NCBI GenBank assembly: GCA_963677485.1
Contig: OY781964.1
Coordinates: 96,001 to 160,000 of the forward strand
Origin: Armatimonadota bacterium
GTDB lineage: Bacteria; Armatimonadota; HRBIN16
Direction of reading: 5' to 3'
Length of the DNA stretch: 64,000 nucleotides
Shown here piece after piece: positions 7,112 to 17,359 of this stretch; the stretch's first letter is position 1; each line of letters begins with the position of its first letter. Both the position numbers and the translations under genes were made by a program. The notes below the pieces were generated by a model. That model was not told the origin of the DNA. It did no database searches and worked only from the letters and a program-made list of their open reading frames with translations.

Positions 7112-7135
7112 AGGGCGGGGTGACCCCGCCCCTAC
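7112..7135 (-). repeat. GTAG-type REP hairpin
   Basis: Minus strand GTAGGGGCGGGGTCACCCCGCCCT: GTAG followed by a GC-rich palindrome. Confidence 0.7.
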
Positions 7136-11970: not shown

Positions 11971-13392
11971 GTGAATCGACGCCGGTTTATCAACGGATCC
12001 GCAATGACGATGGCCGCGCTCTCTGCTGTACCGGCAGCCATGTCTGCGGCAGATCAAAGTCAGGATCAAAAGACCAGCACTTCAATCGATCATACCAATA
12101 AGGTGAAACACGACATGCAAGACCCAATATCGCCAGAACAGCAAAGATACCGTACGATGCTCACCAAGTATGCCACCGCGAACTGCACCAAGATGCTTCG
12201 TGAGCCGATTGGCGTGCTGAAGCATCCGTTCATAGTGCCAGGCAGCGTCTACCAAGATAACCTGTGGGACTGGGACTCCTGGCTAGCCGATGTGGCCATC
12301 AGCCAGCTGGTGGTCGATTCGCCGAAACTTGATAAGGACCTGCTGAGTAAATACGAAAAAGGCAGTATCCTGAACTTCCTGGAGGCCACCGACGACGACG
12401 GCTGGATGCCCATCTGCATCAGTGTCGGCGGATTTGGCGAGATATTTGAGAAGAAAGGTGACGGCTCCCTGGCGAATATGCACAAGCCTGTCATCGCCCA
12501 GCACGCCGCGTTCATCGTCAAAGCACACAACAACGATGCGGAGTGGCTGCGACCTCTGGTCGGCAAACTTGAGGCATTTCTTGGCGCATACGAGCGAAAC
12601 TTTAAACATGCAAAAACTGGACTGTACTACTGGAAGAACGACCTGGCCATCGGCGTGGACAACGACCCAAGCGTCTACTTCCGCCCGCCGAACAGTTGCG
12701 GTTCGATCTACCTGAACTGCCTGATGGTCAAAGAGATGCTGGCGATGGGTTACATTGCTGAAGTTCTAGGAACCGGTACTGCCACCACCTGGCGCCGTAA
12801 AGCCGATGCATTGAAAGCATCAATCAATGAGCACTGCTGGGATGAGCGGGACGGCAGCTACTACAGCGTAGACCTAAACCTGCTGCCCAACGAAAACATC
12901 AAGGGCCTGCATGAAAATCTGCCCCGCGACTGGGACTGCCTGATCATGCGCATCGATGCATGGAGCAACTTCATGGCGTTATGGGCCGGAGTGGCCAGCA
13001 CGGAGCATGCGGCACGTGTGGTGCTTCACGCCCGAAACACCCACACATTCAACGCACCATACGGCATACGGACACTCAGCAAGATGGAAAAGATGTATAA
13101 CCTAAAGGCAAGTGGCAACCCAAGTAACTGGCTGGGGCCGATCTGGGGCATCGCCAACTACATGACCTTCCGCGGTCTGGCTGATTACGGCTACACGGAA
13201 GACGCTGCTGAGATCGCACAGAAGACCATCAACCTGTTTGGCCGCGATTACGAGCAGTTCGGCTCGCTGCATGAGTATTACAACCCCGACACCGGCGAAG
13301 CCATCCTCAACGCCAACTTCCAGAACTGGAACCTGTTGGTGTTGAACATGATCGCCTGGCTGGAAGGCCGACGCATCGTTCGCGAGTTCTAG
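11971..13392 (+). CDS. Tat-exported (alpha/alpha)6 glycoside hydrolase, GH63/GH37-like
   Basis: GTG start after AAAGGGGG; NRRRF twin-arginine; LWDWDSW, GVDNDP, NWLGPIW, LHEYYNPDTGE. Confidence 0.82.
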   Translation: MNRRRFINGSAMTMAALSAVPAAMSAADQSQDQKTSTSIDHTNKVKHDMQDPISPEQQRYRTMLTKYATANCTKMLREPIGVLKHPFIVPGSVYQDNLWDWDSWLADVAISQLVVDSPKLDKDLLSKYEKGSILNFLEATDDDGWMPICISVGGFGEIFEKKGDGSLANMHKPVIAQHAAFIVKAHNNDAEWLRPLVGKLEAFLGAYERNFKHAKTGLYYWKNDLAIGVDNDPSVYFRPPNSCGSIYLNCLMVKEMLAMGYIAEVLGTGTATTWRRKADALKASINEHCWDERDGSYYSVDLNLLPNENIKGLHENLPRDWDCLIMRIDAWSNFMALWAGVASTEHAARVVLHARNTHTFNAPYGIRTLSKMEKMYNLKASGNPSNWLGPIWGIANYMTFRGLADYGYTEDAAEIAQKTINLFGRDYEQFGSLHEYYNPDTGEAILNANFQNWNLLVLNMIAWLEGRRIVREF

Positions 13393-13418
13393 CTTCAGCC
13401 AGCACTCGCTGCTAAGAC

Positions 13419-14160
13419 ATAGGGGTAGGGAGAACTTTCGTTCCCCCTCCCTCCGAACCGTGCGTGCGGTTCTCCCGCACACGGCTCTCCAGTTGGTAGT
13501 GTTACCTCATTTGAGGATTGGTGATTCTTTGCACAGGATGTTTGTAGTGTAAACACCTATACTCAGCATTGAAGGCGACAGCCTTCTTTGCCCCCATATG
13601 ATGGGGCACCAACATCCGATTTGTCCAGTCCACCGATGGCTGAGCAGTCGCCTGCTAGTTGTTTCCGCTTGTTTAGCCTTTTTTTAGGCACTTCTCGCGC
13701 GGAGCTATATTCGGTGGCTGAGACTTCACGGATCTACCTTCCTGCGCTCCCTTGGCTCCACATCCATTACAGACGCTTCAACGCTACTATGGGCGCTCTG
13801 ACTTCTGCCTGCAACGAACTTACTATCGCCACTACTGCAGGCAGATCTCCCTGCTTCACTTACGCGACCTCTTGTGACCATTCCATCCCCAAGCACCTCG
13901 CAACCCCCATCACTGCTCTATACGCTCACTCTCAAGCATAACAGGCACTGTTTTCACAGCACAAACTTCACCATTCCTACGCTGGCTCGTTGGTTCTACG
14001 CGGCCGAAACGGGTTCGTTATCCTACGGACTGGTCACTCGCCAACAGTTGCTCTCCACCCCACCTCGCGGTGACGCAGTTACTGCCGACTACAAGGCCAG
14101 AGTTGGCGTGGCCTCGAAGAGGAATTGCACCTCTTTGTTCGCGTACGCTTGCAGGCGCAC
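13419..14160 (-). mobile_element. ORF-less group II intron (internally deleted derivative)
   Basis: 5' GTGCG at 14160; domain V GAGCCGTGTGCGGGAGAACCGCACGCACGGTTCGG; ends CCCCTAT at 13419; ribozyme 5' part near-identical to neighbour; only short degenerate RT ends remain. Confidence 0.9.
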
Positions 14161-16008
14161 ATAGGGGTAGGGAGAGCTTTCGCTCCCCCTCCCTCCGAAC
14201 CGTGCGTGCGGTTCTCCCGCACACGGCTCTCCAGTTGGTAGTATTACCTTTCTAAGGATTGGCGATACTTCTCACAAGCTGTATGTAGTGAAAACAGCCC
14301 GTGATGCTCAAAGAAGGCGTTCGGCCATATGTTGTGGTCAATTCCACGACCTACACCGCGGCGTCCGTCACGACCACGTAATATACTACGTAACCGCATA
14401 CGTATCCATCCATCCAAGTCCCTAAATATACGACCATCGCAGTATTTGAAGTATCCAAACCAGCCTCTGGTGCTCATGTTTAAGTCATGGATGATGGCCT
14501 GCAGGCTGCGGCCATTTGCGCGTGGGGTCTTTTCGCGGATCGTATCCTTTAGCTTCTTGAGGCTCTTGTCACGAACATTCAGGTATTTACCTTTTTCGAA
14601 ACGAAAGCCCAAGAACTCAAAGGGCTCGATCAGAGCGTCTACGATCCGAGTCTTTACCGGGTGAAGGGTAAGACCAGCTCTTGTCGTCCAGTCTCCCAAC
14701 TTCTGCAAGGCTGCCTCAGCATCTTCCTGGCTTTTGCACAATATCACCAGATCATCGGCGTACCGAACCATCTCTATACCCAGCTCTTCCATCATATGGT
14801 CAAGTGGGTCTAGATAGATATTCGCCAGCAGTGGACTTATCACTGCCCCCTGCGGCGTCCCTTCATCAGGACGCCATTCTGCCACGGTGTCGATAACCCC
14901 CTGGCCTAAGTATGACTTCAGTAAAGACAACACCTTACCATCAGACACCTTGCTCTCCACGAGTGAGAGCAGAGCTGCATGGGGTATCGTGTCAAAGTAG
15001 CTCCTAATGTCAGCATCTACAACGTAGGTGTAACCCTGTTCTAGTAGTGCTGACACACGGCCGATGGCGTGATGGCAACCTAACCCCGGACGGAAACCAT
15101 AACTCCTGTCGGAGAAGTCCCGCTCGAAGATCGGCTCAAGCACGTTCCTCAGTGCCGTTTGAACTACCCTGTCTCTGACTGTAGGTATCCCAAGTGGTCG
15201 CTTTTCTTTGCTTCCGGGCTTGGGTATCCATACTCGCAGTATCGATTGGGGGTAATAGATACCCTCAATCAGCCATGTATGTATCTCTTGAAGATTGGCC
15301 TCAAGATGTTTCCCGAAATGAGCCACACTCTGGTGGTCTACACCGGCACTACCCTTATTTGCTTTCACTCGCGTGAAGGCATCCATCAGGTTTTGCATGG
15401 AGCAGACCTTGTCCATCAGGCTATACCATTTACCTCCATTGACCCCCTCGTCGAGGGCAGCCAACATTCGCCTCGTCCAGACAGCCGGTAGCATAACAGG
15501 GTCAGTGCTTGCTGCTCCCGCGTGGTTAGTCCCTCTAGACACTAGCGCGGGTAACTGTTCCTTTATCTTCACTTGGCGAATCTACCTTCCTGCGCTCCCT
15601 TGGCTCCACATCCATTACAGACGCTTCAACGCTACTATGGGCGCTCTGACTTCTGCCTGCAACGAACTTATTATCGCCACTACTGCAGGCAGATCTCCCT
15701 GCTTCACTTACGCGACCTCTTGTGACCATTCCATCCCCAAGCACCTCGCAACCCCCATCACTGCTCTATACGCTCACTCTCAAGCATGACAGGCACTGTT
15801 TTCACAGCACAAACTTCGCCATTCCTACGCAGGCTCGTTGGTTCTACGCGGCCGAAACGGGTTTGTTATTCTACGGACTGGTCACTCGCCAACAGTTGCT
15901 CTCCACCCCACCTCGCGGTGACGCAGTTACTGCCGACTACAAGGCCAGAGTTGGCGTGGCCTCGAAGAGGAATTGCACCTCTTTGTTCGCGTACGCTTGC
16001 AGGCGCAC
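14161..16008 (-). mobile_element. Full-length group II intron
   Basis: 5' GTGCG at 16008, RT ORF in domain IV, domain V/VI and terminal CCCCTAT at 14161. Confidence 0.95.
14244..15572 (-). CDS. ltrA: Group II intron reverse transcriptase/maturase, no endonuclease domain
   Basis: RPLGIPTVRDR, SYGFRP, DADIRSYFD, GTPQGAVISPLLANIYL, RYADD, maturase X domain (GWFGYF); 442 aa. Confidence 0.95.
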   Translation of the reverse strand: MKIKEQLPALVSRGTNHAGAASTDPVMLPAVWTRRMLAALDEGVNGGKWYSLMDKVCSMQNLMDAFTRVKANKGSAGVDHQSVAHFGKHLEANLQEIHTWLIEGIYYPQSILRVWIPKPGSKEKRPLGIPTVRDRVVQTALRNVLEPIFERDFSDRSYGFRPGLGCHHAIGRVSALLEQGYTYVVDADIRSYFDTIPHAALLSLVESKVSDGKVLSLLKSYLGQGVIDTVAEWRPDEGTPQGAVISPLLANIYLDPLDHMMEELGIEMVRYADDLVILCKSQEDAEAALQKLGDWTTRAGLTLHPVKTRIVDALIEPFEFLGFRFEKGKYLNVRDKSLKKLKDTIREKTPRANGRSLQAIIHDLNMSTRGWFGYFKYCDGRIFRDLDGWIRMRLRSILRGRDGRRGVGRGIDHNIWPNAFFEHHGLFSLHTACEKYRQSLER

Positions 16009-16123
16009 GTAGGGGTGCCCCTTGTGGGCACCCTAATCGTTGCCGGTCATCGATATTGTGTCGGCTATATCGCCCATTCAACGGTTGACATTGTGCTAGG
16101 GTGCCTACAAGAGACGCCCTTAC
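16009..16123. repeat. Inverted REP doublet (REPIN-like), 5' exon of the intron
   Basis: GTAGGGGTGCCCCTTGTGGGCACCCT (16009-16034) and degenerate inverted copy AGGGTGCCTACAAGAGACGCCCTTAC (16098-16123). Confidence 0.78.
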
Positions 16124-16156
16124 GGCCAACGAAAATACCGAACATGCCCACTTGCA

Positions 16157-17359
16157 TCACTTCCCCGGCTTCTTCGCTTCCTTCGCCATCACGCCTTTCA
16201 GGGACAGCTCACGTATGGCGATATCACCTCGGAAAGGCGATTTCAGCTCCCAACCGATGTTGAAGTGTGAGATCTTGAAGCCAGACAGATCAGGCTTCAC
16301 GTCAAGAAAGGCCTGTTTCTGCGTTTGCATCGCCAGGAGGGCCTTGCGAGCGACCTCCAAAACATCAATGCTGATCTCAGTTTCTTTCCCAGCCGCAAAG
16401 GCATCCAGCCTGGCTAGATAGTCTTTACCCAGCACCGTCAGGTAACTCAGCCCATAGGCAAAGGACTCACCATCGGACATCACCAAATCCGTACTGTAAT
16501 TGACGGGTAAAGGGTAGGGCAAAAAGTCATCATAAACCTGGCACCCGAGCCAGAAGGTCTTGCCAAAGTTGCTGGGCAGAGCCGTATCTCCTTTGCGGCA
16601 ATCAACCACCTTGAACCAAAGGAAAAAGCCATTCCGGTTGTAAAGCCCCCTCCAGTTCGCAATCTGATCGCCCTTGTATTGGCTGCTCAGGTTCTCAGCA
16701 CAAATCAACCTGAGTTTGACCTTAAGCTTAAGTGACTGGAGGGTATTGAGAGCAGGGAAGGTGCTGGCATACTCCTCGGCAACACCAATCCGCACCTTGC
16801 GGTCGCGGTAAGGGAAGAAGTCGTGATATAGAAGATAGTGCGGTCGTAATGACTCCATGCGTTCATAGGAGATAGGCTCATGGTTGAACATAGCAAGTGA
16901 GTCGATACCCATCTGCAGCTCTGGCTGTCCTTTACTGTCGACAATCACACGCATAGATTCGTATTCGCTTTGCCATAAGGCTTCACGTTTAGTCGATATC
17001 TTACGGTCACTCTCCGAAAGGCTTTTTACACAATACCACTGGGCCACCGACCCGAAAGGCTGCTGGCCAGTGGCCTTTATCGGTTTTAACTGGTTGAAAT
17101 CTGTGAAGGGCATCTCTCGGGCTATCATGGGTGGAGAAACCATAAATCCGCGCAGGAATGCATCAGCTGGGAAGAATTCAACCGCCGTTTCGGCTTTGGC
17201 GGCCGCAGCCAGCTTCGCACGGCCTTTGTCTGGTTGGCTTTGATTGGCCTGCTGGTTCTGCTTAGGCGTGGTGGGTATATCGGCAACAGCACTTGCTACA
17301 TGGCTGAGCCCTAACGCCAAAATCGTCCATGCATACAACTCGTATTTCCCTAAGCGCAC
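16157..17359 (-). CDS. Hypothetical exported protein
   Basis: 400-aa ORF, GTG start with AGGAG RBS, signal-peptide-like N-terminus; family not recognised. Confidence 0.75.
   Translation of the reverse strand: MRLGKYELYAWTILALGLSHVASAVADIPTTPKQNQQANQSQPDKGRAKLAAAAKAETAVEFFPADAFLRGFMVSPPMIAREMPFTDFNQLKPIKATGQQPFGSVAQWYCVKSLSESDRKISTKREALWQSEYESMRVIVDSKGQPELQMGIDSLAMFNHEPISYERMESLRPHYLLYHDFFPYRDRKVRIGVAEEYASTFPALNTLQSLKLKVKLRLICAENLSSQYKGDQIANWRGLYNRNGFFLWFKVVDCRKGDTALPSNFGKTFWLGCQVYDDFLPYPLPVNYSTDLVMSDGESFAYGLSYLTVLGKDYLARLDAFAAGKETEISIDVLEVARKALLAMQTQKQAFLDVKPDLSGFKISHFNIGWELKSPFRGDIAIRELSLKGVMAKEAKKPGK

Follow-up and report, generated by a model that had tools for sequence, protein, structure and literature searches.

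A group II intron inserted at the ends of REP hairpins in an Armatimonadota chromosome, and its head-to-tail tandem

The 64,000-nucleotide stretch analysed here (the window; bases 96001-160000 of the complete 5.22-Mb chromosome OY781964.1 of an Armatimonadota bacterium, assembly GCA_963677485.1) carries on its minus strand a full-length group II intron (16008-14161) that is followed directly, head to tail, by a copy lacking an open reading frame (ORF), the mini-intron (14160-13419). This arrangement raises the question of what directs such an intron to this spot, and how two of them came to lie end to end. A preliminary description, made from the sequence alone, had proposed that the intron targets the GTAG end of repetitive extragenic palindromic (REP) hairpins and that its own 3' end mimics this target, so that it can build arrays. 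The elements that were named there (the intron pair, a hairpin doublet, exon-binding site 1 (EBS1), the 3' ends and an empty REP) are all present; homing to REP ends is supported, while the view of the 3' end as a self-targeting adaptation finds no support in that form. Our analysis suggests that the locus probably holds a recently active intron, whose reverse transcriptase (RT) lacks an endonuclease, with its non-autonomous ORF-less derivatives, and that the tandem is a by-product of a manner of target choice resembling that of class C (IIC) introns.

Both units have the 5' GUGYG sequence (GTGCGCC, at 16008 and 14160), the domain V/VI with a bulged branch A and the 3' AY (...CUAU) of group II introns. 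Each terminates in the domain VI hairpin followed by CCCCTAT, every junction is followed by a G, and the junction between the two introns reads ...CCCCTAT/GTGCG (a slash marks a junction), exactly and with zero extra bases. The ORF of the full-length intron lies in domain IV and matches TIGR04416 at 373.5 bits (cut-off 300), and a search of its 442 residues for domains returned RVT_1 and GIIM only, with no endonuclease domain. Comparison with relatives (P0001 has 407 residues) suggests that translation may start at M36. In blastn, nucleotides 1-438 of the mini-intron share 97.9% identity with the full copy and its last 137 nt share 89%, and about 440 nt upstream of domain IV are common to the two forms. 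Its middle 167 nt gave no blastn match to the full copy and may retain the start of a related RT frame, as judged from one frame read by eye. Rfam typing of domains I-IV of the window intron yielded only a sub-threshold match to RF01998 (18.4 bits).

Elsewhere in the chromosome there are a second full copy, with a single mismatch over 1848 nt, and two additional mini copies (0-2 mismatches in 742 nt), which brings the total to five; the near-identity of the copies therefore points to recent mobility, and the mini copies were presumably moved in trans by the protein of the full copy. All four independent genomic sites have the same layout, namely a GC hairpin, CC(C)CTAC, the intron and a G. The sequence of the hairpin varies among the four sites and CCUAC/G is constant. 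In the window the 5' exon is hairpin plus CCCCTAC, as had been described: the target REP reads, on the minus strand, hairpin plus CTAC immediately 5' of the intron, its hairpin folds as single-stranded DNA (ssDNA) at -10.7 kcal/mol (z -3.8), and it forms one arm of an inverted doublet (16008-16035 and 16097-16124) with 28-nt arms that are 82% complementary.

The bases that are recognised at these sites emerge from covariation between introns and exons. Loci encoding relatives of the RT (80 loci, 50-62% identity) were collected from genome contigs of many phyla, with intron boundaries placed via profile alignment; 43 non-redundant genome-derived introns, including the window intron, form the covariation set, 42 metagenome-derived introns (among them the tandem L203 discussed below) form a second, independent set, and 30 shuffles per exon position serve as control. 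Each of the five exon positions upstream of the junction finds its best partner among five consecutive intron columns, which read GUAGG at positions 181-185 in both window copies (CCTAC on the plus strand at 15824-15828 and 13976-13980). In the genome set, exon position -1 pairs with intron position 181 in 43 of 43 introns, always as a Watson-Crick pair and with all four pair types represented, and positions -2 to -5 pair with 182 to 185 in 38, 41, 36 and 36 of 43; the metagenome set gives 42, 39, 39, 38 and 38 of 42 for positions -1 to -5, with Watson-Crick pairs at 39 of the 42 paired -1 positions. Column 268 (EBS3) pairs with the first 3'-exon base in 42/43 introns of the genome set, 41/42 in the shuffle-control run and 35/36 in the metagenome set. 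The EBS3 pair and all EBS1 pairs but one lie above the shuffle maximum; the exception, position -2, equals it at 37. Covariation in both sets thus shows the EBS1 and EBS3 assignments, including the placement of EBS1 about 180 nt into the two introns that had been put forward from the window, and both the minimum-free-energy fold and the alignment fold put EBS1 in a hairpin loop. No intron column covaries above shuffles with exon positions -6 to -14 or +2 to +4 in the genome set, and because positions -6 to -14 give no signal we conclude that there is no EBS2. The table of covarying pairs amounts to ready retargeting rules for a compact endonuclease-less intron.

The REPs at which the intron sits form a large family in this genome. 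When they are counted as GTAGGG plus a strict hairpin (an earlier, laxer filter passed about 6% of any CC-ending site and was replaced), 245 of 1667 GTAGGG sites (14.7%) qualify, five of which are the introns' own domain VI, leaving 240 REPs. For ten of twelve control trimers a strict hairpin is found at 1.2-3.4% of sites; the two exceptions, TTAGGG (11.9%) and CTAGGG (6.2%), seem to represent the distal arms of these REP hairpins. A C precedes GTAG in 132 of the 245, in which case the intron strand reads CTAC/G, and 63 neighbouring pairs lie less than 120 nt apart. Long open frames contain 21 of the 240 REPs (219 lie outside), as against 71% of random positions. The family is therefore repeated, extragenic and palindromic with a conserved 5' GTAG, as REPs are. 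A complete genome of the same genus (G012) contains many 32-35-nt matches to the REP arm, and the intron was not detected in it, so the REP repeats exist independently of the intron. A plain excess of the heptamer CCCCTAC was considered and rejected: its 728 copies are near expectation by a rough estimate from base composition, and the signal is found in GTAGGG plus hairpin, not in the heptamer. Three Y1_Tnp genes are present in the chromosome (C1:376078-376404, 2992049-2992381 and 4121913-4122239); they score as IS200-type, with REP_Tyr_transpos below its cut-off. The commonest 11-mers of the genome (about 300-420 copies, for example the ACCGCGCCGGT and CCGCCCCGGAC types) derive from another repeat family, which is much larger than that of the GTAG hairpins.

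On our account three components make up a target. The first is a GC-rich hairpin, which is presumably extruded on ssDNA at the replication fork; the second consists of some five bases, just 3' of the stem or overlapping it, that pair with EBS1; and the third is one base that pairs with EBS3. With GUAGG as EBS1 and C as EBS3, the window intron is complementary to the conserved C-GTAGG end of the roughly 240-copy REP family (opposite strand), which accounts for its landing exactly at REP ends. Cumulative GC skew puts the replication origin at about 2.14 Mb and the terminus at about 4.74 Mb, and the target strand is on the lagging-strand template at 4/4 occupied sites, as against 53 of 132 candidate sites; this bias agrees with the behaviour of endonuclease-less introns as summarised by Zimmerly and Semper (2015, PMC4424553). 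The REP at 7112-7135 had been predicted to be an empty target. Every sequence feature of a target is present, since its plus strand reads hairpin plus CCCCTAC/G (...CCCCGCCCCTAC/G) and folds at -10.8 kcal/mol, but its target strand has the opposite orientation and is not on the lagging-strand template, an orientation that none of the four occupied sites uses. The features of the window are listed in Table 1.

Table 1. Positions of the two introns, their functional elements and the associated REPs in the window
Feature	Position	Strand	Evidence
Full-length group II intron, 1848 nt, 5' GUGCGCC ... CCCCUAU 3'	14161..16008	-	5' end, flanks, RF00029
Intron-encoded RT/maturase ORF, 442 aa from first GTG	14244..15572	-	RVT_1 1.6e-40, GIIM 2.3e-14
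Domain V (AGC triad, 33 nt, 5-nt loop) and domain VI (bulged branch A) of full intron; 3' tail CCCCUAU	14161..14231	-	RF00029 alignment, 58.1 bits
ORF-less mini-intron, 742 nt, head to tail with full copy	13419..14160	-	EBS1 at 13976-13980, EBS3 at 13893, same as full copy
Domain V/VI of mini-intron	13419..13489	-	RF00029, 58.7 bits
EBS1, 5'-GUAGG-3', intron 181-185, loop of small hairpin GCC[UGCGUAGGAAU]GGC	15824..15828	-	Covariation, shuffles, fold
EBS3, C at intron position 268, pairs with first 3'-exon base G	15741..15741	-	Covariation
Target REP, GTAG plus 8-bp hairpin (16013-16020 with 16026-16033)	16009..16034	+	Member of GTAGGG plus hairpin family
Degenerate inverted partner of target REP	16097..16124	-	No stable fold alone, z = 0
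Unoccupied REP of same kind; predicted insertion between 7135 and 7136	7112..7135	-	Sequence, fold

Hairpins are a regular feature of the insertion sites of the relatives as well. A tabulation of their 5' exons, a check that the preliminary description had proposed, finds a hairpin at 41 of 43 genome-derived junctions, and a strong one (score of at least 7) at 30/43 genome-derived and 24/35 metagenome-derived 5' exons, compared with 204 of 2000 random control sites. The insertion point is mostly 3-4 nt past the stem, and the most frequent junction in genome contigs is CTA/C (15/43), which on the opposite strand is G/TAG. In the host genomes in which the target hairpin was counted, it usually proved to be multicopy: it occurs 408 times in G008 and 79 times in G002, there mostly as inverted doublets 35 nt apart (control 0 in both), 23 times in G003 (control 4) and 15 times in G005 (control 1). 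A degenerate pattern gave 0-4 copies in G004, G006 and G007, and in the Desulfosarcina genome G001 there are nine copies, several of which adjoin intron copies.

Of particular interest is the orphan RNA motif Acido-Lenti-1 (RF01687), which an Rfam scan matched near several introns of the family (for example L025:4996-5113, L011:1183-1227 and L005:4061-4107). The motif consists of hairpin 1, CTA, about 9 nt and hairpin 2, and its reverse complement begins with (G)TAG plus hairpin; the introns of L025, L011, L004, L046 and L031 are placed exactly past hairpin 1 plus CT(A/G). Five of 44 reconstructed empty sites match the Acido-Lenti-1 profile (20 copies), three of them across the junction and two partially, and control matches occurred only where the control used a half taken from a matching site. 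In five hosts (G003, G004, G006, G010 and G011), 50-145 among the 150 candidates scored per genome match the motif, frequently in inverted pairs with a spacing of about 150 nt. Because it is multicopy, occurs in inverted pairs and has a reverse complement that begins with (G)TAG plus hairpin, Acido-Lenti-1 resembles REPINs (REP doublets forming hairpins). A search at E<=1 of the genome to which the window belongs gave no match to it. The public description of the motif presumably contains a remark that links it to group II introns. Such a link was not found in the main texts searched, and the supplementary tables of Toro 2013 and Weinberg 2010 may list one, or members of class F. On an intron lineage homing to REPs, the literature searched yielded only a table entry on Pseudomonas putida, in which 2 of 9 copies of a group II intron are located at REPs, a weak association (22%) for which that entry states no pairing mechanism (Tobes and Pareja 2006, PMC1525189).

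The intron and its relatives recognise their exons in the IIC way, that is, through a hairpin, a short intron-binding site 1 (IBS1) and IBS3 without EBS2, yet they are not canonical IIC introns. In agreement with what had been noted for the window intron, an AGC triad and a 33-nt domain V are found in 74 of 74 family loci, and a 4-bp distal stem with a 5-nt (GARAN-type) loop was parsed in 69 of 74. RF02001, the IIC model, captures in the plasmid references the IIC domain I with its AGGAA-bearing epsilon' bulge. Scanned with it, 19 family loci gave no match, and the window intron gave none even with a limit of E<=10, whereas eight plasmid introns treated as IIC references score 71-141 bits; two of these eight (L085 and L089) were checked for the triad and the terminator exon, and both have a CGC triad, a 5' exon of hairpin plus T-run and a CUACUCGAU end. 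A maximum likelihood tree of 28 RTs, the phylogenetic check that had been proposed, recovers the family as a clade of its own (99/99), distinct from the one formed by the RTs of the RF02001-type introns (95/97), with the mutual branching order of the two clades not resolved. The nearest RTs of solved structure are of class IIC (GsI-IIC 8.7e-72, Eubacterium rectale 7.4e-61; those of IIB and IIA are at about 1e-39). The lineage is widespread.

Two plasmid introns deserve mention here. The intron L084 (Paraburkholderia plasmid pBN3, 22356-26075) has an RT nested in the family (49% identity) and a domain I scoring 41.8 bits on RF02001, with no RF00029 match reported, and may be an intermediate form. 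L088 (Sulfobacillus plasmid pY0017), with an RT that is 45% identical over residues 48-398, has an AGC triad in a 34-nt domain V, no RF02001 match was found for it, and a hairpin possibly lies just 5' of its candidate GTGCG; it may represent another non-IIC lineage near hairpins.

The lineage can be compared with several known systems. With IIC introns (for example B.h.I1, and L085, L087 and L089) it shares the endonuclease-less RT and its nearest solved relatives, the intergenic insertion just past a stem-loop, and the combination of short EBS1-IBS1 and EBS3-IBS3 pairings without EBS2 (PMC1702495). The hallmarks given for IIC by Toor et al. (2006, PMC1702495) are a CGC triad, a domain V distal stem shorter by 2 bp, an epsilon' bulge with AGGAA, an IBS1 of 3-4 bp and a terminator stem-loop; the family differs in its AGC triad, in its domain V (33 nt, distal stem of 4 bp, loop of 5 nt), in an IBS1 of 5 bp, in targets that have no terminator T-run, in the missing RF02001 match and in its separate RT clade. 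The 5-nt domain V loop, the AGC triad, the compact ribozyme of about 450-700 nt and the endonuclease-less RT are features also of IIE and IIF introns as described by Nagy et al. (2013, PMC3753933), and the host range resembles that given for class F (So.us.I2, Ge.ur.I1 and c-Ku.st.I1; PMC3552965). However, those introns have a covarying EBS2-IBS2 and home site-specifically, whereas the family has a hairpin and no EBS2 signal, class F having been compared by description only. The IIC-attC introns are likewise a sub-lineage specialised on one repeated family of imperfect hairpins with fixed short IBS1/IBS3 (TTGT/T; PMC7923331), but their targets are the bottom strands of integron attC sites and their RNA is canonical IIC, while the window intron uses REP/REPIN repeats. 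REPs also serve as landing sites for ISPpu9, ISPpu10, IS1397 and ISPa11 (Tobes and Pareja 2006, PMC1525189), which, unlike the intron, are DNA transposons.

With regard to the tandem, we favour, with moderate confidence, re-insertion at the occupied 5' junction. The invariant first base of the intron, G1, is identical with its IBS3, so that an occupied site (hairpin plus CCUAC/G) stays a perfect target. Most probably a mini-intron was the resident and the full-length copy entered at its 5' junction. Along this route hairpin and IBS1 are intact, G1 stands as IBS3 opposite the EBS3 C, and all six pairs would be Watson-Crick. Re-insertion of this kind, through an EBS3-G1 pair and at the same 5' exon, has been shown experimentally for the IIB1 intron EcKTE56.groEL, where it leads to head-to-tail tandems (Gomes et al. 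2025, PMC12584367). That intron, as described there, is site-specific with long EBS1/EBS2 and has U.G at EBS3, unlike the Watson-Crick C-G and REP hairpin 5' exon found here. Among the 43 introns of the genome set only the window intron has C at EBS3. The fact that no tandem was seen in any of the 80 genome-contig loci fits re-insertion at the 5' junction, because EBS3 is G in 33 of 43 introns and G cannot pair with G1.

The 3'-end mimicry of the preliminary description is the weaker of two good explanations for array building, and we regard it as unlikely. It holds that the domain VI hairpin, CCCCUAU and the following G are together a target, that the mini-intron was inserted after a resident full copy, and that arrays extend from the 3' end. 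Much of it is correct as a statement about the sequence: the domain VI region of the full intron folds as ssDNA at -10.7 kcal/mol, the same as REP hairpins (-10.7 and -10.8) and with the same 3-4-nt tail, and CCUAU forms four Watson-Crick pairs and one G.U with GUAGG, with G as the next base at each junction. It would also suit the mini-intron as the newcomer, as ORF-less copies are often the more mobile ones, and those of EcKTE56.groEL form tandems more often (22.4% vs 4.2%; PMC12584367). However, CCCCUAU ends 68 of 74 family loci whatever their EBS1, and so is not an adaptation of the window intron; the G.U that it requires at position -1 does not occur at any of the 43 genome-derived sites, with the metagenome set giving the Watson-Crick count above; the competing 5' junction matches perfectly at all six paired positions; and the genome-contig loci have no tandem. 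The only other tandem that was found (L203:1-2696, on a metagenome contig, in one of 80 metagenome loci) has an EBS1, ACUAA, that suits the 5' exons of its relatives (UUAGU) and pairs with CCUAU at one of five positions, and therefore cannot be explained by mimicry of the 3' end. The upstream copy in L203 has a domain V that seems, as read by eye, a few bases shorter than the family norm, and this copy might be decaying.

Two further explanations have to be weighed against re-insertion at the 5' junction. In template switching, the RT would reach the 5' end of an inserted intron RNA and jump to the 3' end of a second, making a head-to-tail cDNA in one event. Group II intron RTs are known to switch templates end to end (PMC3683930), the junction is exact with no added bases, the full and mini forms coexist as RNAs in the cell, and L203 would be accounted for with no pairing requirement; on the other hand, the process calls for an extra switch back to the 5'-exon DNA, and it would leave unexplained why the sole intron of 43 with C at EBS3 is the one with a tandem. 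We therefore consider it improbable. Least credible of all, to our mind, is the view that the hairpins are not pre-existing REPs and were instead carried or created by the intron, or that their association with it is a chance effect of hairpin abundance. The Desulfosarcina genome, with its nine copies and several of them beside introns, could be read in this way. Against it stand about 240 REPs to five intron copies in the window's genome, the REP hairpins of G012 with no intron detected, hairpin sequences that differ at four sites around a constant CCUAC/G, and a rate of such hairpins of 10% at control sites vs 70% at junctions.

Direct comparison of alleles bears on the locus as follows. Contigs of four sequencing runs, compared with 12900-16600, reproduce the outer junctions, and one contig extends 6 nt across the tandem junction. 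In the same-genus genome only the downstream gene is conserved at the locus (about 81-84% identity), and no empty-site comparison is available there because upstream synteny is broken.

Several observations weigh against the account of a REP-targeting intron with a by-product tandem. No empty or single-intron allele was found in relatives or in the contigs of the four runs, and the tandem routes yield an identical final sequence, from which the order of insertion cannot be observed. For L203, the 5'-junction route would entail a G.G mismatch between EBS3 and IBS3. The genome offers only four sites and one tandem, and the strand bias is weak (0.4^4, about 0.03). Furthermore, the hairpin of one site (c4) fails the strict REP filter and that of another (c3) belongs to a subfamily with a 3-nt loop. 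Finally, a link to REP-associated tyrosine transposases (RAYTs) was not found, as no strict GTAG hairpin lies within 1.5 kb of any of the three Y1 genes.

Until now, hairpin-directed targeting has been treated as a hallmark of IIC introns alone, as in the accounts given by Zimmerly and Semper (2015, PMC4424553) and by a 2021 survey (PMC7923331). The targeting mode itself is known; what is new here is a second lineage with hairpin-guided targeting, and REP/REPIN repeats, including Acido-Lenti-1, as its landing sites. Finding such targeting in introns with a non-IIC domain V, whose RTs form a clade apart, is relevant to the question of whether the recognition of hairpins is an ancestral trait or arose convergently. 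In addition, REPs, which are common but little understood, gain a new ecological role as safe, intergenic and self-renewing landing sites for retroelements, and the use of G1 as IBS3 predicts which introns can build tandem arrays. A broader reading, which we offer tentatively, is that these introns may constitute a class of their own with a very wide distribution, separate both from canonical IIC and from the IIE/IIF introns described so far, that is guided by hairpins and short pairings and has REP/REPIN repeats as habitual landing pads in Acidobacteriota, Planctomycetota, Verrucomicrobiota and Proteobacteria, with EBS1 and EBS3 retuned per host. By the same tentative reading Acido-Lenti-1 might be a GTAG-type REPIN-like DNA repeat, the introns might compete with RAYT-type enzymes for ssDNA hairpins, and variants with G as IBS3, such as the window intron, could form arrays.

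One of the mini copies elsewhere in the chromosome is split by a 1654-nt element (C1:824518-826171; L118:219-1872). This element has 22 chromosomal copies at an identity of at least 99.15% and encodes a 511-aa ORF with no match in Pfam or NCBIfam; it is probably an undescribed insertion sequence.

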